From: a virus
Lineage: Duplodnaviria; Caudoviricetes
IMG/VR virus record: IMGVR_UViG_3300034107_000631
Location: 1-25,786 of that record
Direction: 5' to 3' (one strand)
DNA length: 25,786 bases
Shown: in pieces, positions 2,109 to 13,870 of the stretch
Layout: the number at the start of each line of letters is the position of its first letter
How positions within the stretch are numbered: position 1 is the first letter of the stretch
The notes under the pieces: generated by a model
What the model was told of the DNA's origin: nothing
What the model saw: the letters and a program-made list of their open reading frames with translations, nothing else
The model's database searches: none
Made by a program: the position numbers and the translations under genes

Positions 2109-2145
2109 AAAAACCCCCACCTCAAAATAGAAGTGGGGGTTTTTT
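2109..2145 (+). terminator. Intrinsic terminator, probably bidirectional
   Basis: AAAAACCCCCAC...GTGGGGGTTTTT inverted repeat with an A-run on the left and a T-run on the right, just after the sheath stop codon. Confidence 0.85.
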
Positions 2146-2231
2146 ATTATTTGGGGTTTTTTTATATGATAGGGGCAATTAGTTTACTTTTATTATATCA
2201 AGTATTATTTTTTTATATAATATATAAATTA

Positions 2232-3131
2232 ATGAAAAAAAATACTTTACCAAAGAACAACCCCAATGTTGCAATGTATATTGCATTTGGATTATGGGGT
2301 TCATTTTTATTGGGTGTAATATATACCCCAAGCAAAATTAAATATGAAAAACAATCATTTACACCATTAATTCAACAAGAAACAGTTTTTATTGAAAAAG
2401 TAATTGAACCAATTAAAGTGAAAGTTGATACTGCTGAACCAATTAAAGTGAAAGTTGAAACTACTGAACCAATTATACCAGAAAATGATGCAATTGAAGG
2501 TGTAACAATAATTAATGAGGATGCTTATTCAAAAAGGTCATATGTTTATGATATTAGACATATGAGTAAAACTGAATTAAGAAAACATCTAAAAACTAAT
2601 GGATTTAGAAATTTGGATAATGCTACTTTAGTTCAGATGAGAAGAATGTGGATGGCATTTCATTATGAGAGTATGTTAATGAATTTACATCTATTGACAG
2701 AATTCCCCATATCTATGCTCTATTCATTCTTTATCATTGAGGCAACCACTAATGGCATTGAGACCAACTTATGGCGACTGCACGCAAATGCGGGGGGAAT
2801 GAAGGCATTTAAGGGGTACGGTTCTGTGACATATAAAACCTATGAAGTGATAAGGGGAAAAAATGTAACTATGAAAGCAAAATTTATGAGTGCAAAAAAT
2901 ACTCAAGAAGGAATTGAGGCTTGGGCTAAAGTATTAAATTCAGGTAGATATTATGAGTGCAAGAAAGCAAATTATAAATTACCAAAGAAACAATTATATG
3001 AAAGCATATGCAAGTGTGTTTATGAATCTGGTTATCATACAGACCCTAAGTATAAGTTTAGAGCACAATTTATGGCAGAGTTTTGGAAATTCAAAACAGA
3101 GAACCTTCCAATTATTATAGAGGAATTTTAA
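2232..3131 (+). CDS. GH73 (glucosaminidase/FlgJ-like) peptidoglycan hydrolase with N-terminal membrane anchor
   Basis: FFIIEATTNG (candidate catalytic Glu), NAGGMK (cf. NLFGIK) and GYHTDPKY (cf. GYATDPxY). Hydrophobic segment VAMYIAFGLWGSFLLGVIY follows basic MKK. The track start GTG 2133 lies inside the terminator; ATG 2232 is preferred, ATG 2166 is possible. Confidence 0.75.
   Translation: MKKNTLPKNNPNVAMYIAFGLWGSFLLGVIYTPSKIKYEKQSFTPLIQQETVFIEKVIEPIKVKVDTAEPIKVKVETTEPIIPENDAIEGVTIINEDAYSKRSYVYDIRHMSKTELRKHLKTNGFRNLDNATLVQMRRMWMAFHYESMLMNLHLLTEFPISMLYSFFIIEATTNGIETNLWRLHANAGGMKAFKGYGSVTYKTYEVIRGKNVTMKAKFMSAKNTQEGIEAWAKVLNSGRYYECKKANYKLPKKQLYESICKCVYESGYHTDPKYKFRAQFMAEFWKFKTENLPIIIEEF
2405..2475 (+). 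repeat. 30-bp in-frame tandem repeat, about 2.4 copies (EPIKVKVDTA/EPIKVKVETT/EPI)
   Basis: TGAACCAATTAAAGTGAAAGTTGA at 2405 and 2435; partial copy TGAACCAATTA at 2465. Confidence 0.95.
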
Positions 3132-3211: not shown

Positions 3212-4009
3212 ATGAAGATAATTAAAGAATTTAATGAAAAATCAACTCCAGATATGAAGTATTATGCTTTTGACTGGGATGACAATATTGTATATATGCC
3301 AACAGAAATAATATTACTTGATAATAATGATGATGAAGTTGGAATGTCAACACATGACTTTGCAAAATATAGAGGTGATGTTGGAAAAAATGAATTTAAA
3401 TATAGAGGGACTACAATTGTTGGTTATGCTGATTTACCATTTAGACAATTTACAGTTACAGGTGATGAACAATTCTTACGAGATATTATGATTGCAAAAG
3501 TTGGTCCAGCATTTGATGATTTCAAAGAAGCAGTTAATAATGGATCCATTTTCTCAATTATCACAGCAAGGGGACATAATCCTGAAACATTGAAAAAAGC
3601 AGTTAAAATATATATTGAAGAAGAATTTGATGGGATTATTAAAGATAAAGTTATACATAATCTTAATAAATATAGAGATTTAATCCCAAGTCAAACTGAT
3701 ATTGATATAATTGATGAATATTTGGATTTATGTAAATTCTATCCGGTTTCATTTGGTTCTGGTAGTGCTGCTAATCCAGAAGTAGAAAAAGTGAAAGCAT
3801 TAAAGGAATTTTATGATTATTGTAAAGAAATGGCTAATCAAATTAAAAAAGCATTTGAATTTAAAAATGAAGTTTCTGGTGAATCATTGAAATTCTCAAT
3901 TGGATTTTCTGATGATGATATGAAAAATATTGAAACAATGAAGAATAGTATGAATAAACCAGAATTAACAATATATTCAACAAATAAAGGTACTAAAGAA
4001 AAAGTATAA
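3212..4009 (+). CDS. HAD-superfamily phosphatase-like protein
   Basis: Motif I YAFDWDDNI (DxD), motif II SIITARG, a Lys in EVEKVKAL, motif IV GFSDDD. Confidence 0.7.
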   Translation: MKIIKEFNEKSTPDMKYYAFDWDDNIVYMPTEIILLDNNDDEVGMSTHDFAKYRGDVGKNEFKYRGTTIVGYADLPFRQFTVTGDEQFLRDIMIAKVGPAFDDFKEAVNNGSIFSIITARGHNPETLKKAVKIYIEEEFDGIIKDKVIHNLNKYRDLIPSQTDIDIIDEYLDLCKFYPVSFGSGSAANPEVEKVKALKEFYDYCKEMANQIKKAFEFKNEVSGESLKFSIGFSDDDMKNIETMKNSMNKPELTIYSTNKGTKEKV

Positions 4010-4111: not shown

Positions 4112-5722
4112 TTAAAAATTTAATTTGAATACAAAATTACCAACATCATAAATTCTTGGAATACCCCTTTCTTCCATAATTTGGAATTCTGTTTTGGTTG
4201 AATCAAAACCATTCTTAACCAAGATGTCTTTTCTAAATTCAAATCTATGTTTTCTTTTTTTATTAACAATATAAAAATAATTTGGGCTAGTTGATTTAAC
4301 TTCAACAAAGCCCAATTTTTTATATAAATTTCCATTACTCCATCTTTTATCAGCATAACTTAAAATTTCTGCTGGGTTATATGTTTGAATAAAATATTTT
4401 AATAATTTTGATGCACCCCCTACTACAGAAGTATTTAATTTATTGCAAAATCTAAGAAGTTCATATTCTTTATCATTTTTAATTTTATTACCCAGAGCAA
4501 TTCTCTTTTTTCCAAATGTCATTAAAGATACCAATTCATCATTATAATATAATCCAAGGTTAATGGAACTTCCAACCATACCTTGAATATGATTCTCATT
4601 AAGGAATTTTGATTTATCTTTTGTTTTAACCAATTTGATATTGCACTTCCTAGCATAAATCTTATGTTCAACTTTGTTTAATTTGTTTAACAATATGCTT
4701 TTAACAATTTCTTTTTTGCAATCCCATTCATCTTCAAATATATGAATTAACTGGATATTATTTGAATTGCAAATTTCTGTTTTCTCTAAATGATAATTAT
4801 TTTTTTTGAATACATTTGAATGAAAGTAAACCCCATTGAATTCAATGGCTAAGTTATGTTTGGGGATATAGATATCAATTTCTTTACCATTTAAAATATT
4901 TCTATCATTTTTAATATATTCAATATTATTATTATTCAAGAATTCACATAAATCATTTTCTTTAATTGATGAAAATTCACCTGCTGGATTACATAATGTA
5001 CAAGGATTTACTTTATTTTCATGCCTATAATATAATAAACTCCTATAAATTGAGTATTGCTTATTACAAATATCACATATTATTTCAATGTTGTTACCAA
5101 CAGAATTTACAATATTTAAATTATTATGTTTTTTTTCAAAATTAATTGATGATTTTTTAGTTTTTATATTTCTACTTTCCTTTAATAAGATTGGGGTGCT
5201 AACACCATATCTTTTAATATTTGTTTCTGCTATTTTTTGTTTTACTTTATCTAATTTTGAAATATGGTCAACTCCATATTTTTCAATTGTTCTTTGTTTA
5301 ATTAATTCTGTATCAAAGAATATATTTGTAACTCCATAATTTAACATTGTGGTGGCTTCTACTTTTGCCTTAATTTCTTTTGAAGAATTTGGGGAATTAC
5401 CACCATATTTCTCTGTATTTGTTATTTTAATTTTATTTATATGTTCAATATCAGAGTTTGTGCAAAGCAAAGAACAATAAAGTCCATAACCTTCAGTTAA
5501 GGATCTTTTAAACTTTAAATTTACCCCACATTTCTTGCAGGTTGGAATTTCTTTAACCTGATTAATGTAGTGCCATATTTTTTGTTTAAATGATATAGAT
5601 GTTAAATGTGTGGTGTAATTAATGATTTTTTCATATAAATCATTATGGTTGTTTTTAAGAAATGATTCTTTGGTCTTATAGCCAGATTTATTGTCAGTTG
5701 TAAAAAAAATTAATAAATCCAT
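4112..5722 (-). CDS. Free-standing homing-endonuclease-like protein: Zn-binding motifs, YG repeats, Vsr/DUF559-like PD-(D/E)xK-type nuclease and C-terminal GNAT (Mom-like) domain
   Basis: CKKC...YCSLLC; four xxYG repeats (EKYGG, LNYGV, EKYGV, KRYGV); CDIC...CTLC; EIDIYIPKHNLAIEFNGVYFHS...IHIFEDEW; then ELLRFC...VVGGASKLLKYF...ILSYADKRWSNGNLYKKLGF. It is the only long minus-strand gene in the window. Confidence 0.75.
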   Translation of the reverse strand: MDLLIFFTTDNKSGYKTKESFLKNNHNDLYEKIINYTTHLTSISFKQKIWHYINQVKEIPTCKKCGVNLKFKRSLTEGYGLYCSLLCTNSDIEHINKIKITNTEKYGGNSPNSSKEIKAKVEATTMLNYGVTNIFFDTELIKQRTIEKYGVDHISKLDKVKQKIAETNIKRYGVSTPILLKESRNIKTKKSSINFEKKHNNLNIVNSVGNNIEIICDICNKQYSIYRSLLYYRHENKVNPCTLCNPAGEFSSIKENDLCEFLNNNNIEYIKNDRNILNGKEIDIYIPKHNLAIEFNGVYFHSNVFKKNNYHLEKTEICNSNNIQLIHIFEDEWDCKKEIVKSILLNKLNKVEHKIYARKCNIKLVKTKDKSKFLNENHIQGMVGSSINLGLYYNDELVSLMTFGKKRIALGNKIKNDKEYELLRFCNKLNTSVVGGASKLLKYFIQTYNPAEILSYADKRWSNGNLYKKLGFVEVKSTSPNYFYIVNKKRKHRFEFRKDILVKNGFDSTKTEFQIMEERGIPRIYDVGNFVFKLNF

Positions 5723-5742: not shown

Positions 5743-5793
5743 TATTTATAAAATGTATGAGAATGGACTCATAACAAAGATAATAATAAATAT
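5743..5793. promoter_or_regulatory. Face-to-face TATTTAT motifs (+ at 5743-5750, - at 5786-5793) around a small hairpin
   Basis: GATATTTATA on +; ATAAATAT reads ATATTTAT on -; TATGAG-AATGGA-CTCATA lies between them (5756-5773). Confidence 0.45.
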
Positions 5794-5819: not shown

Positions 5820-6308
5820 ATGGCTGATTTATTAATTAAAATGCCTTTTCCTTATGAACCAAAAAGACAAAATAGGTTTATACTAAGGTTTCCAGCTCCT
5901 ATGGGGATAAATGAATGGTTTGTTGAAAGTACATCAAGACCTAAAATATCAATAGCATCAAAAGAAATTGAATTTTTAAATACATCAACATTTGTTTCTG
6001 GTAGATTTAAATGGGAACCAATCACTATTAAATTCAGAGACCCAATTGGTCCATCTGCTGCTCAAGCATTAATGGAGTGGGTTAGATTGCATGCAGAATC
6101 AATTACAGGTAGAATGGGGTATGCTTCTGGCTATAAGCAGAATTTAGCATTAGAATTACTTGACCCAACTGGTGTTGTGATTGAAAAATGGGAATTAATT
6201 GGTTGTATTATAACAAATGCTGATTTTGGTGCTTTAGCATATAATTCAGATTCATTAGCTGATATTAGTGTTACAATTCAACCTGATAGATGTATATTAG
6301 TATATTAA
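5820..6308 (+). CDS. Tail tube protein (T4 gp19-like)
   Basis: 162 aa with EPKRQNRF, RPKI, GRFKWEPITIKFRD, LMEW, GYKQNLALELLDPTGVVIEKWELIGC, FGALAY and VTIQPD; lies downstream of the sheath. Confidence 0.92.
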   Translation: MADLLIKMPFPYEPKRQNRFILRFPAPMGINEWFVESTSRPKISIASKEIEFLNTSTFVSGRFKWEPITIKFRDPIGPSAAQALMEWVRLHAESITGRMGYASGYKQNLALELLDPTGVVIEKWELIGCIITNADFGALAYNSDSLADISVTIQPDRCILVY

Positions 6309-9205: not shown

Positions 9206-12200
9206 ATGAGAAGTCCTTTAGATTTTGGAAATAGTTTTAATTATAGAAATGTATTAACAACTAAAAATTTACCTCCATATAAGAAAACATCTTTTGGGAG
9301 AGTTCCTCCATTTTTTTATGAGGCTGGTCCATTTAGGGTTTCTCCAGTAATTGATAGTGATGACAAATTAATTGACACTCCAGTTTTCTCAAAACAATTA
9401 TATCCATTAAATCAATATGGTGCTGTTGGTGGTTATACACAAGTTACTGATCCTAATATATTAAAAAATAAAAAATCAAATTTTGGTGAATATAATATAG
9501 GTATTGCTAATACATTAAAGATTAATAATAAAGTATTATTAGAAAATTTATCAAGAAATTATTATACAACAGCTGATAATACTATTGATTCCGGTATTTT
9601 TTTAGAAAAACTTGATTATTGGTTTGACCCAAATTTACCAAAAAAGGGGATATTGTATTATTGGGATAAAGGTGTTCCTAATTTTAAACCATCAACATAT
9701 ACTGCATTTGGTATATTAACAAATGATGCTGAAACAAAATCTAATTTAGCTGCTGATTCATATATTACAAGATTGGGTGCAAAAGTTTTAAATGAATATT
9801 TTACAGAAAGAGTTGGTAGATTAACTGATAGATTTAATGTTATAAAAAAGTTTGAAAAAACAATTGATAGTTTAAATAATCCATTAGATGTTTATAACCT
9901 TATTACTGGTAGAAACCCCATATTACAACCTAATTGGAGTATAACAAAACCAAGTAATTTACTTGTTGGTGCTGCACAATTGTCATTAGATTTAGCTGGG
10001 GGTGAATTACCTTTTCCTAGTATTGTTGGGAGCTATTTTGATGAAACAATTAGTTTAACTGGGAAAGGGGATAAGGGTTTTCTTGGTGGGTTATTTAAAC
10101 AAAAGAAAACTGGTTCACAATTATTTTATGATAATATGGGGGCTGGTCAGAGGTCAGTTTTATATAAAAATATAAATAAAAATTTATATAAGCCAAATTA
10201 TGAAAGAAGTGGTATTATAGGTTCTTTTTTAGATTTATTCACAAAAAATACTGAAACCTATTATGTTGGGAGTGATAATTTGGATATTGGGGATATTGCA
10301 TCTCCAGCTGGTGAATTACCAATAGACCAATTTGGAAGACCACTTAAAATAAGTGTTTATGGACCAACAGAGTTGTCAAAAGTATATGAAGGGGAAAACT
10401 TTAATCCCCCTATGGCATTGAATGGTATATCTGATATTGATGGTGGTGGTATTGAAGGGGGTTTTACCTGGGTATCACCCAAATATAAAGGTAATAGTGG
10501 AAAGAATGTTGGAAAAGGTGGTGAAGTTTTTGGGGAGAATGGTACAAAGAGAACAACATTTGATTCAACTGAATCAACAAATTATGAATTAAAGAAAGGT
10601 TCAATATTAGATGATACTCAAAGAATTATTAATTCACAACCAAATGGGGCAAATAGATTAAAGCATGTTGGAAATGCAATGGATCAAGTTAGCAAAGTTT
10701 TTAATGATGGATATAAAGAGATAACAAAAGGTTCAAGAGTTAGGACATATAAGTATCAAAACCCAGAAACTTTGGTTGGGGGCACTTTTCAAGAATATTG
10801 TAGATTATTTACAAAAGATTCACCCTATATGACTTATGAAAGATTGCAGAAAACAAGTGGTATAACTAATGAAGGGAGGAGATTAAAGAGTTCTGTTATA
10901 AATAAAACTTATGATTTAAGTATTGCCCCAAGGAAGGGGAATGATGCTAAAAAATATATGTTATCTATTGAGAATTTGGCATGGAGAACAACAAATATGT
11001 TTTTAGATTTGCCAGAATGTGAGAAGGGACCAAATGGGGGTAGAATAATGTGGTTTCCACCATATGATTTAAAAGTTTCAGATAGTTCTAGTGCAAATTG
11101 GAATGCAAATGATTTTTTGGGAAGACCTGAACCAGTTTATACTTATAAAAATACAACAAGAAATGGTACTTTGGATTTTAGTATTGTAGTTGACCACCCC
11201 TCAATTCTTAATTTAATTGCAAATAGAGTTTTAGAAAAAGAAAATAATTCTGAACAAATAAATGGGATATTAACTTCTTTTTTTGCTGGATGTTTAAAGT
11301 ATGATATATATGATTTGGCTAAAATATATAATACAATGACTTTATCTGAACTTGAAGAAATTCAAAAAATGGTAAAAGAATCCCCATCTACAAAAGATGA
11401 AACAACCTATATTAAACGAACAGTAATAACTGGTGTTGACCCTTTAACACTTTTTGATATTGATACCCCTCCTGATGAAAAAGTAACAGTATTTGACAAA
11501 TATGCAGATTTTGCATTTTATTTTGATAATGATGAACCTATATCAAGTATTGCTGATTATACAGTATTATTTAATACATATACTGCTTCAACAAGTTATA
11601 ATAAGGGGGAGTTAAAAACTTTTATGGATAATTATGTTAAAAATAATTTTACAGAACTAAACAAATTCATAACTGAGTGCAATAATTTCTTAAAAGAAAA
11701 TGATGGGAATACTGTTGAAGTTACTCTTAATTCATCAGCATCAAAACCAGCAAGTAATAATTATAATAAATTATTAAGTGCAAGACGTAGTGGTAGTATA
11801 GTATCTTATTTAAAGAGTAATATAAAATCACCAAATTTTACAATAAAAACAAATAATCTAGGTGAAGACACTGGTGTTACAGCAAAGTCATCAAATAACC
11901 AAACAAAGAGAGTTGATGTTTGTAGTGGCTTTACAGGGAATGCAATTTATAGTGTAAGTGCTATGGCTTGTAGAAGAGTTGCCATAGGAGGTGTTACTGC
12001 AATAAAGAAAGGGGTTGCACCAAAAATTGAACCAAAAAAACAAACAAGTGAGGCACAAATTAAAGTTATTACAGAAGGAAAAGAAAAGGAAACAACTAAA
12101 GTTGAGGAAAAATTATATAAAAATGTATCAAAAAGAGTCTTGCAAAAGTTATTAACTGAATGTGATTATTTTGAAACAATTGAAGAAACCAGCCCATTTA

Positions 12201-13870
12201 TATATAATAATTTAAAAGATAAAATAAAATATTTTACACCAGCATTCCATTCAACAACACCAGAAGGTTTAAATGGTAGATTAACATTTTTGCAACAATG
12301 TGTTAGACCTGGGGAGACAATCCCAACAATAAGGAAAGATGGTGCAAGTGAAGTTAGGGATGCAAAGAATACATCTTTTGGTATACCCCCTGTTTTAATA
12401 TTAAGGGTTGGAGATTTTTACCATACAAAAATTATACCAGAAAATTTAACTATTAGTTATGATCCAATAAGTTGGGATATAAATCCAGAAGGAATTGGGT
12501 TTCAACCAATGATAGCAAAGATTAGTTTATCATTTAAGTTTGTTGGTGCTAGTGGATTGAGTAAAGCAGTTGATAAGTTGCAAAATGCATTATCATTTAA
12601 TTATTATGCCAATACTGAAGTTTATGATGCAAGAGCAGAAAAAACAGATGATAGTTTGGCTGATATGGATAAGAAGATTGAGGAATTCATTAGAGAAAAA
12701 GAAAAAGGTCAAACAGAAAATTTTGATGATATTCCAGTTGTTAATTCCTATACAACAATTGGTACATTAGATATTGTTAATAAAACTTTAACATATGTGA
12801 ATCTAGCTAATGAATTAAAAGATTCAGCAACATCATATATTGATACAATAAATTCTGCTATACAAGAAAATTCTAAATCATACAATATTGAATTGATTTC
12901 TGTTATATTAAAAACGTTAAATAATATTGAGGGAATATATAATTCAACAAACAATAGTGAATTAAAATTATTTGGCATACCAACAAATTATCAAAAGGAA
13001 ATTGATGATTTCACTAAAAAAATAAAAAGTAATATTAAAAATAATACTGATTTATTTATTGATAAAATAAATAGTGAATTTTCATCAGATAAGAATACAA
13101 AGTTTGAAGTTTCAAAGAATTATCAATTATATGTTGATACTGAAATGACAAAGGTTAACAATATTATTAATTCATTTGCCATAAAAATTATTGAAGCCCA
13201 AGAGAAATTTCAAAAAGTATTGAGCAAGGCTTTGTTTGTTATGTCAACACATGATGGTTATGATGGTTATGATGGTTATGTTGATAAAAGTGGACAATTC
13301 TTTGTATATGAATTAAAAAATAAAATGACAATAATTAATGATATCTTGGAAAGTGTTGGTGAGAATATAAATAAAATATTACCTAATTTTAGATTGACTA
13401 ATTATGATCCAGAAAGTTTATACAACATGAATGAACAAGATAGTTTGGTTTATTTATTGCTATATGGTTCATTAAAAGATAAAAATGGTTTTGAAAATTT
13501 TGAAAAACAAATTCTGATTAAATCAGTCAATCCGGATAATAAAGTAAATGATATTAACACTAAAATATCAAAAATATTCAAAGAATATTGGGATGAAAAA
13601 TTAAAAGGATATTCAGGTATTTTTGATAATACAACAAAATTTTTAAGTGCTTTGGGTAATTATACTAAAGATGCTACCACATTTTTGAAAAGTATTACAA
13701 TAAATAATACAAATCTTATTACTGATTATAATGAAATAAGTTCACCAGATAATGCAACAAAAAAAGCATTATTAAATTTAAATGGTGATACAAATTATGA
13801 TAATAATAAAAATACTTGGAGTAAGAATGATAATGATTTTATTTTAGTTAAAAATAAATTAACAAGATGA
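9206..13870 (+). CDS. Large baseplate/tail-tube-initiator-like protein (gp48/gp54-like fold) with an internal OmpA-like peptidoglycan-binding domain
   Basis: Tube-like segments FPPYDLKVSDSSSANW...GRPEPVYTYKNTTRNGTLDF and PPVLILRVGDFY...LTISYD...PMIAKISLSFKF. OmpA-like segment FYFDND...SAS...YNKLLSARRSGSIVSYL...GE...CRRVAI. Confidence 0.65.
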   Translation: MRSPLDFGNSFNYRNVLTTKNLPPYKKTSFGRVPPFFYEAGPFRVSPVIDSDDKLIDTPVFSKQLYPLNQYGAVGGYTQVTDPNILKNKKSNFGEYNIGIANTLKINNKVLLENLSRNYYTTADNTIDSGIFLEKLDYWFDPNLPKKGILYYWDKGVPNFKPSTYTAFGILTNDAETKSNLAADSYITRLGAKVLNEYFTERVGRLTDRFNVIKKFEKTIDSLNNPLDVYNLITGRNPILQPNWSITKPSNLLVGAAQLSLDLAGGELPFPSIVGSYFDETISLTGKGDKGFLGGLFKQKKTGSQLFYDNMGAGQRSVLYKNINKNLYKPNYERSGIIGSFLDLFTKNTETYYVGSDNLDIGDIASPAGELPIDQFGRPLKISVYGPTELSKVYEGENFNPPMALNGISDIDGGGIEGGFTWVSPKYKGNSGKNVGKGGEVFGENGTKRTTFDSTESTNYELKKGSILDDTQRIINSQPNGANRLKHVGNAMDQVSKVFNDGYKEITKGSRVRTYKYQNPETLVGGTFQEYCRLFTKDSPYMTYERLQKTSGITNEGRRLKSSVINKTYDLSIAPRKGNDAKKYMLSIENLAWRTTNMFLDLPECEKGPNGGRIMWFPPYDLKVSDSSSANWNANDFLGRPEPVYTYKNTTRNGTLDFSIVVDHPSILNLIANRVLEKENNSEQINGILTSFFAGCLKYDIYDLAKIYNTMTLSELEEIQKMVKESPSTKDETTYIKRTVITGVDPLTLFDIDTPPDEKVTVFDKYADFAFYFDNDEPISSIADYTVLFNTYTASTSYNKGELKTFMDNYVKNNFTELNKFITECNNFLKENDGNTVEVTLNSSASKPASNNYNKLLSARRSGSIVSYLKSNIKSPNFTIKTNNLGEDTGVTAKSSNNQTKRVDVCSGFTGNAIYSVSAMACRRVAIGGVTAIKKGVAPKIEPKKQTSEAQIKVITEGKEKETTKVEEKLYKNVSKRVLQKLLTECDYFETIEETSPFIYNNLKDKIKYFTPAFHSTTPEGLNGRLTFLQQCVRPGETIPTIRKDGASEVRDAKNTSFGIPPVLILRVGDFYHTKIIPENLTISYDPISWDINPEGIGFQPMIAKISLSFKFVGASGLSKAVDKLQNALSFNYYANTEVYDARAEKTDDSLADMDKKIEEFIREKEKGQTENFDDIPVVNSYTTIGTLDIVNKTLTYVNLANELKDSATSYIDTINSAIQENSKSYNIELISVILKTLNNIEGIYNSTNNSELKLFGIPTNYQKEIDDFTKKIKSNIKNNTDLFIDKINSEFSSDKNTKFEVSKNYQLYVDTEMTKVNNIINSFAIKIIEAQEKFQKVLSKALFVMSTHDGYDGYDGYVDKSGQFFVYELKNKMTIINDILESVGENINKILPNFRLTNYDPESLYNMNEQDSLVYLLLYGSLKDKNGFENFEKQILIKSVNPDNKVNDINTKISKIFKEYWDEKLKGYSGIFDNTTKFLSALGNYTKDATTFLKSITINNTNLITDYNEISSPDNATKKALLNLNGDTNYDNNKNTWSKNDNDFILVKNKLTR
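13251..13280 (+). repeat. 9-bp in-frame tandem repeat (ATGATGGTT x3.3; DGYDGYDGY)
   Basis: Three exact copies followed by ATG. Confidence 0.9.

Follow-up and report, generated by a model that had tools for sequence, protein, structure and literature searches.

The gene that lies antisense beside the tail tube gene of an uncultured large myovirus encodes a 536-aa protein, P0001, which almost certainly belongs to the Hef type of free-standing homing endonucleases, and its C-terminal domain is, judging from the modelled structure, a GNAT nearest in fold to the Mom protein of phage Mu. The reading put forward here, to which we give an even chance, is that of a homing endonuclease that would cut a long nearby site and whose Mom-like domain would mark the carrier's own site. 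The locus itself is ordinary, i.e. a new copy of a very common and already described family; the interest lies at the level of the family, in which the role of the Mom-like domain is testable.

The window, i.e. the whole stretch of 25 786 nt that was analysed, contains genes for the sheath, tube, baseplate hub, ssb, a UvsX-like recombinase and an exonuclease, and represents part of a large tail and recombination region of myovirus type. It contains one Hef copy, a count that covers these 25.8 kb, and an Rfam scan of the window gave no match. The gene and its surroundings are:

22-2091: sheath gene (Pfam/PHROG annotation).
2133-3131: glucosaminidase-like gene, between the sheath gene and the 265-aa gene.
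3212..4009, plus strand: left neighbour, a conserved 265-aa gene, found immediately upstream of the tube gene in Hef-less relatives.
4112..5722, minus strand: Hef-type gene with a C-terminal Mom-like GNAT (ORF, 536 aa, P0001).
5743..5750, minus strand: TATAAATA box, a possible but weak T4-type late promoter, 20 nt upstream of the start codon.
5820..6308, plus strand: right neighbour, tail tube gene (PHROG 4542, E 4.6e-29), a candidate target gene.

A preliminary description had called this the sole gene opposing the operon, which holds: no other long ORF of the window is on the minus strand, where the remaining ones of at least 70 aa are 70-117 aa long and overlap longer genes. The same description had placed it between sheath and tube; the tube gene does adjoin it, but the glucosaminidase-like and 265-aa genes separate it from the sheath gene. 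Likewise, its antisense orientation inside the tail operon is real but not special, being the same in phage LIMEstone1, and antisense placement was discarded as a habit of the family, since paralogues at the tube/hub junction and after the sheath run in the sense orientation.

Pfam, PHROG and NCBIfam gave no name for the 265-aa gene (3212-4009), which nearly all relatives have between their sheath and tube genes and which has a DxD motif, from which we take it to be HAD-like. The glucosaminidase-like gene (2133-3131) has hydrophobic stretches at its N-terminus and is itself optional, being missing in most relatives and inverted in loci L003, L009, L040, L081 and L082. The TATAAATA box was called on what we take to be the T4-type late promoter consensus; 18 such boxes occur on both strands of this AT-rich window, and the promoter-like box upstream of the tube gene is also present in Hef-less relatives. 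An enrichment of late promoters upstream of Hef genes was considered and dropped, as the TAAATA count (19/52) came in large part from one junction and had no control. Further along the tail region, a 1554-aa protein (window 9206-13870) gave a weak, below-cut-off match to the OmpA family (residues 824-901, E 9e-5). The public runs best matching the window were labelled lake water or metagenome, with at least half of the words found in 6 of the 20 matches listed.

Membership in the Hef family, which the preliminary description had missed, is indicated by a match to PHROG 3339 over residues 17-535 (E 1.9e-134), and 7617 relatives were found among 8000 scored candidates. By tblastn, 420 of 50 697 GenBank phage records matched at 1104 places, many of them annotated as hef or Hef-like; 79 of these records covered at least 80 % of P0001, and the annotation 'putative nuclease/acetyltransferase' was found in 2 of the 60 records listed. 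Hef of phage U5 was reportedly presented by Sandegren in 2005, in the very title, as a free-standing homing endonuclease, and is said to have cleaved, in vitro, DNA from carriers of Hef as well as DNA lacking it. In the T4-like phage Lv5cm, a 544-aa gene product is 33 % identical to P0001 over residues 62-533 (E 5e-56), the GNAT included, and its gene lies between nrdA and nrdB, the position where Hef replaces mobE (PMC2790892). Hef has been counted in the EDxHD group of homing endonucleases (PMC3239194).

An AlphaFold2 model of P0001 built from 110 homologues (mean pLDDT 91.8, pTM 0.63) shows an N-terminal arm, a nuclease at residues 251-350 and a separate domain at residues 357-536. The parts, from the N-terminus onwards, are:

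5462..5539, minus strand: first Cys4 cluster, C62/C65/C83/C87, a predicted zinc site.
5153..5437, minus strand: four helical YG repeats, approximately residues 96-190, DUF7487, a predicted modular DNA-binding arm.
4991..5077, minus strand: second Cys4 cluster, C216/C219/C241/C244, a predicted zinc ribbon, at least 90 % conserved.
4673..4972, minus strand: Vsr-like/EDxHD nuclease by profile match, residues 251-350, with E255, D283, E294, H301 and H311.
4115..4654, minus strand: Mom-like GNAT domain (Foldseek, VIA and Pfam), residues 357-536, containing a putative counterpart of the HTH-like insertion of Mom.

The two Cys4 clusters, four YG repeats, Vsr-like nuclease and separate C-terminal GNAT of the preliminary description were all borne out. 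Among the 110 homologues, C83 and C87 are invariant and the remaining six cysteines are at least 90 % conserved, while in the nuclease E255, E281, E294, H301 and H311 are invariant and E255/D283/E294/H301 are kept in 109-110 of 110; because they are conserved across this set, neither the clusters nor the nuclease motifs are chance resemblances. The repeats, with [KNR]YG at residues 105, 128, 148 and 171, match Pfam PF24308 over residues 96-189 (E 1e-12) and form four long helices in the model, and their dN/dS ranks highest or second of five regions in 10 of 11 pairs. In the nuclease, the EIDIY, AIEF and EDEW motifs start at residues 281, 292 and 330, the family profile matches that of I-Bth0305I (3r3p; E 4.2e-5), and D283 and H301 align with D196 and H213, the residues mutated in the 3r3p crystal; nuclease activity is predicted for this copy. 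Over the same 11 pairs, dN/dS was 0.07-0.38 for the nuclease and 0.04-0.29 for the GNAT; both domains are under purifying selection.

The C-terminal domain, in which the ELLRF, GGASK, SYAD and GNLY motifs start at residues 421, 435, 455 and 464, returned Mu Mom (8bv8) at both of the first two Foldseek ranks (E 1.5e-7 and 1.2e-6). VIA aligned 166 residues with Mom 36-221 (Z 13.2, rmsd 4.2); by Z, Mom ties with ordinary acetyltransferases, whereas its 166 aligned residues exceed those of the remaining GNATs among the matches listed, which reach 146 at most. The likeness is harder to recover from sequence: the Pfam Mom family PF25680 scored 23.4 bits (E 5.2e-5), under its gathering cut-off of 27.1, hhalign to Mom alone gave a probability of less than 2 %, an NCBIfam search gave nothing useful, and sequence searches of the PDB with P0001 or with the GNAT alignment did not find Mom, which the fold search alone recovered. 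In the Atlas clusters at 0.97, PF25680 is found in 16-26 % of members.

In Mom, Silva et al. named H58, Y59, R111, S124, D149, R151 and Y159, with R151 being essential, and reported that the HTH-like insertion (about 175-209) is essential for activity. Six of these seven active-site residues are kept in P0001 according to a sequence alignment, i.e. H378, R424, S438, D458, R460 and Y467 in the place of H58, R111, S124, D149, R151 and Y159, while Y59 is replaced by I379. In that order, the six are kept in 110, 109, 104, 110, 110 and 109 of the 110 homologues; in a wider set, the full H-R-S-D-R-Y combination is present in 48 of 118 distinct ORFs, the equivalent of R151 being variable. Helices follow the GNAT core in the model (residues 493-518), and the VIA span, as judged from the ends of its range, would cover the HTH-like insertion. 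The GNAT is probably catalytically active. The fold check proposed in the preliminary description thus came out in favour of a Mom-like GNAT, but the acyl-CoA pocket that it had named as a further criterion is outdated because Mom takes glycine from charged tRNA-Gly (PMC13219725), with which it modifies adenine at N6 in dsDNA.

It could be argued that P0001 is a plain homing endonuclease whose GNAT is a non-catalytic module for DNA binding, base flipping or dimerisation, the carrier being protected by the sequence of its site or not protected at all. The lost Y59 and the variable R151 equivalent would fit such a module, but the conserved residues are the very ones marked as catalytic by the Mom mutagenesis of Silva et al., and in two copies described below the nuclease motif has outlasted the GNAT core. 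We regard this explanation as unlikely.

The mobility of the gene was assessed at 80 tube-anchored loci, the best of 600 matches from 14 of the 64 parts of the collection. Both neighbours are visible at 72 of these loci, of which 6 have the gene and 66 do not, so the gene is not vertically fixed at this junction, in agreement with the mobility presumed in the preliminary description; at the remaining eight the left neighbour is out of view, and the gene is present at one of these. The starred branches of the hub tree (59 distinct rows) force at least four gains or losses, and the sister pair L005/L006 on this tree consists of one occupied and one empty locus. In the comparison of L002 with L003, the Hef proteins are 95 % identical and the left neighbours 51 %. 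L083 resembles the window closely (tube 97 %, Hef 99 %) and has an extra Hef at the tube/hub junction that is absent from the window. Separate Hef paralogues are present at tube/hub in L003, L083 and L092-L094, and after the sheath in L003-L005, L087 and L092. The flanking genes are intact at the occupied junctions, and the Hef gene is optional here and lies outside introns and inteins.

Two side observations concern these and other junctions. At the tube/hub junction of L074 (6531-7457), where other relatives have Hef, there is a Vsr-like nuclease ORF without a GNAT, assigned to its family by eye. In RPN226 (L098:3887-5398), a Hef gene in antisense orientation separates the major capsid gene from the vertex gene, as T4 segD does in both position and orientation.

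The tube alleles showed no decisive Hef-linked target site or co-conversion tract, and the tube of L066 joins the main clade with an SH-aLRT of only 87-89. Lys at tube codon 42, present in 18 of 18 Hef-bearing and 11 of 65 Hef-less alleles, was rejected as evidence for the target, as the best columns follow kinship; if the GNAT were a non-catalytic module, this Lys could be a resistance allele, with the same confounding by kinship.

According to the mechanism that we propose, the nuclease would have a single long target, situated in a conserved gene close by, and by cutting it in co-infecting relatives would spread the Hef gene. The Mom-like domain would modify adenine at or near the homing site, the modifying group probably being an aminoacyl from charged tRNA, and the modification would keep the carrier's own copy uncut. 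The target site, the donor and the protective role are all inferred along with the GNAT activity; for self-protection of the carrier's own site in particular, the arguments for and against appear to us evenly balanced.

A broader system was considered as well, in which a single gene would provide restriction-modification, with genome-wide modification of adenine and a nuclease that attacks unmodified host or superinfecting DNA at a short site. This has been predicted in print for Mom-REase fusions of jumbo phages (PMC7824862), and the intact Mom residues agree with it, as does the fact that the domains travel together: in 401 of 418 records, one place covers at least 80 % of the nuclease plus GNAT query. 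Against it, however, stand the identity of the family as Hef, which is described as a homing endonuclease (PMC3239194), and the long variable N-terminal arm, the junction-specific paralogues and the location of some copies inside group I introns. Because P0001 belongs to Hef, a long locus-specific target is likelier than general cutting of unmodified DNA.

Multi-copy genomes bear on the same question. All 9 full Hef copies of LR756500 and all 11 copies of F372 keep H/E/R/D/Y, although in 8 of the 9 in LR756500 Arg is missing from both positions that follow the Asp, where the R151 equivalent would lie; in LR756500.1 (L100-L115), several of the nine full Hef-Mom copies are in tandem. Since every copy keeps the core in genomes with 9-11 copies, a broad modifier would be redundant, and a role specific to each copy therefore fits better. 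That copies persist in which the GNAT has decayed while the nuclease motif is intact also speaks against restriction-modification, which we consider improbable.

The same retention counts against an active GNAT carried as cargo, i.e. one that serves the carrier against host restriction, or whose acylation target is not DNA, and that plays no part in shielding the carrier from its own nuclease. The known role of Mom is indeed anti-restriction (PMC13219725), but each paralogue of the multi-copy genomes retains the GNAT and no stand-alone form with its own N-terminus was found when the best 120 of the 572 short hits were compared; 118 of these 120 are collinear truncations. In detail, 92 of the 120 continue into the nuclease or the pre-GNAT linker, 26 are collinear but GNAT-only and 2 have extra N-termini, and we read the short GNAT hits as truncations or start-call artefacts. 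We hold the cargo explanation to be as improbable as restriction-modification.

Retention was further surveyed in 220 distinct nuclease plus GNAT ORFs from 507 loci, with H, R, D/N and Y taken as the core. All four positions are kept in 210 ORFs and three in another 4; 2 (PB50 and L303) have decayed but still have an intact nuclease motif, 3 were set aside because they are at a locus end or mis-scored, and 1 is the intact intron copy. With 210 of 220 intact and two decayed beside an intact nuclease motif, the GNAT is strongly kept yet not indispensable, and as those two copies keep the nuclease motif after the loss of the GNAT core, the domain looks non-essential for the persistence of the nuclease gene. 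Decayed copies are under-counted, because most loci were pulled with GNAT-bearing queries. The copies that bear on this point are:

L139:2410-4216 (LC680884.1): intron-borne Hef-Mom of phage PBS1, with an AR9 counterpart at L240.
L155:1760-3420 (OR770614.1): Hef of Staphylococcus phage PB50, borne by a putative group I intron.
L303:907-2463: free-standing Hef whose nuclease motif is intact and whose GNAT is shortened and decayed.

The PBS1/AR9 copy sits in a group I intron (Rfam match of 84 bits; joined CDS in GenBank) that splits the DxDGD motif of the virion RNAP beta-prime gene, and it keeps all six Mom residues. The putative PB50 intron splits the same RNAP beta-prime motif, apparently one codon from the PBS1 site, and its Hef has an intact nuclease motif and has lost the Mom residues; this intron had no Rfam match even in E-value mode, and its group I-like elements were recognized by motif only. 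Inside an intron that splits the motif, protection would be unnecessary, in line with the GNAT decay in PB50. With the PBS1/AR9 copy intact and L303 decayed without an intron, the intron test stands at one of two, i.e. decay in 1/2 intron copies versus 1/215 others (Fisher p 0.018, with two intron cases only). No further intron-borne fusion was found by Rfam over 60 loci, a scan that missed the PB50 intron, or among 127 intron-motif loci from 2 of the 64 collection parts, and IMG/VR contained no relative of the PB50 protein. Just upstream in the beta-prime gene of PBS1/AR9, a second ORF of the Vsr type lies in a group II intron.

In PALS_2 (L237:2483-4192) and L244 (943-2595), a free-standing Hef-Mom lies directly downstream of an uninterrupted beta-prime gene, and among the GenBank relatives of the PBS1 intron copy that are not identical to it, the PALS_2 protein comes closest (42.5 %). 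This placement would fit a later capture by an intron, and it is tempting to see in these loci a possible intron-capture series.

Taken together, the pattern of retention and loss speaks more for a protective modification that is dispensable and specific to each copy than for a broad restriction-modification system. Several results count against the self-marking model, i.e. the change of Y59 to Ile, the variable R151 equivalent, the sub-threshold Pfam Mom match, the low hhalign probability, the tie in VIA Z with ordinary acetyltransferases and the negative outcome of the search for a target site or co-conversion tract, as well as the decayed L303 copy, which is free-standing, and the intact PBS1/AR9 intron copy. 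The last of these is compatible with all three alternatives: with restriction-modification, with a non-catalytic module, and with cargo, as the GNAT is kept where the intron already splits the presumed site.

Extended to the whole family, the self-marking model would make Hef self-immunising, one polypeptide cutting a long site in competitors and stamping a tRNA-derived hypermodified adenine on its own site; we offer this generalization tentatively and rate it somewhat below an even chance. Immunity would then be chemical rather than a matter of sequence; every paralogue would require a Mom domain for itself, and splitting of the site by an intron would be followed by decay of that domain, as in PB50. 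If the Mom-like domain does protect the homing site, selfish genes that are widespread in phages (420/50 697 GenBank phage records) would join homing to DNA hypermodification, a free-standing endonuclease could target an essential gene without the carrier changing the sequence of that gene, and the family would be a source of site-specific DNA aminoacyltransferases. The intact AR9/PBS1 copies, the decayed PB50 and L303 copies and the T4-like nrdA/nrdB copy, which could be handled in laboratory E. coli, form a natural comparison set.

The idea of cutting and protecting in one protein, which the preliminary description had raised, is not new, having been in print since Iyer et al. 2021. Their Mom-REase fusions of jumbo phages show the same domain pairing and were given the same predicted logic, with acyl-CoA donors and an attack on host or superinfecting DNA (PMC7824862); the words 'Hef' and 'Vsr' do not occur in the main text of that paper, which presents the fusion without a link to Hef homing. 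Our literature search, which covered largely open-access papers, found no paper that joins Hef to Mom or tests the Mom-like domain, and no nucleoside data on modified adenine in Hef-carrying phages. What is added here are the core-retention counts, the two decayed copies and the intron comparison.

Compared with Mu Mom, the P0001 domain shares the GNAT fold and six active-site equivalents, a likeness drawn from sequence and model, and the structural alignment would run across the HTH-like insertion. Identity is about 16 %, the P0001 domain is fused whereas Mom stands alone, and the basic N-terminal stretch of Mom (11-19) falls outside the aligned range, where the nuclease of P0001 joins. With I-Bth0305I (3r3p), P0001 has in common a Vsr-like nuclease with aligned E, D and H and an N-terminal modular DNA-binding arm; it differs in having YG repeats and Cys4 clusters where I-Bth0305I has NUMOD2, in the added Mom-like domain and in being free-standing. 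In contrast to the EDxHD signature, the last Asp is a His in P0001 (H311) and throughout the Hef family.

The closest counterparts are Hef and the Hef-like proteins (U5 Hef, LIMEstone1 F-LimVIII and PHROG 3339/559), which have the same whole architecture, including the C-terminal domain, the comparison with U5 Hef having been made through its positional equivalent, the nrdA/nrdB copy of Lv5cm. They also share the traits of being optional, multi-copy and located between conserved genes. F-LimVIII, given as Hef-like beside the tube gene (PMC3296691), is 31 % identical to P0001 and likewise lies antisense between sheath and tube in its record. From these proteins, P0001 differs only in its insertion site, i.e. 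the junction of the 265-aa and tube genes of an uncultured large myovirus, and in its lineage.
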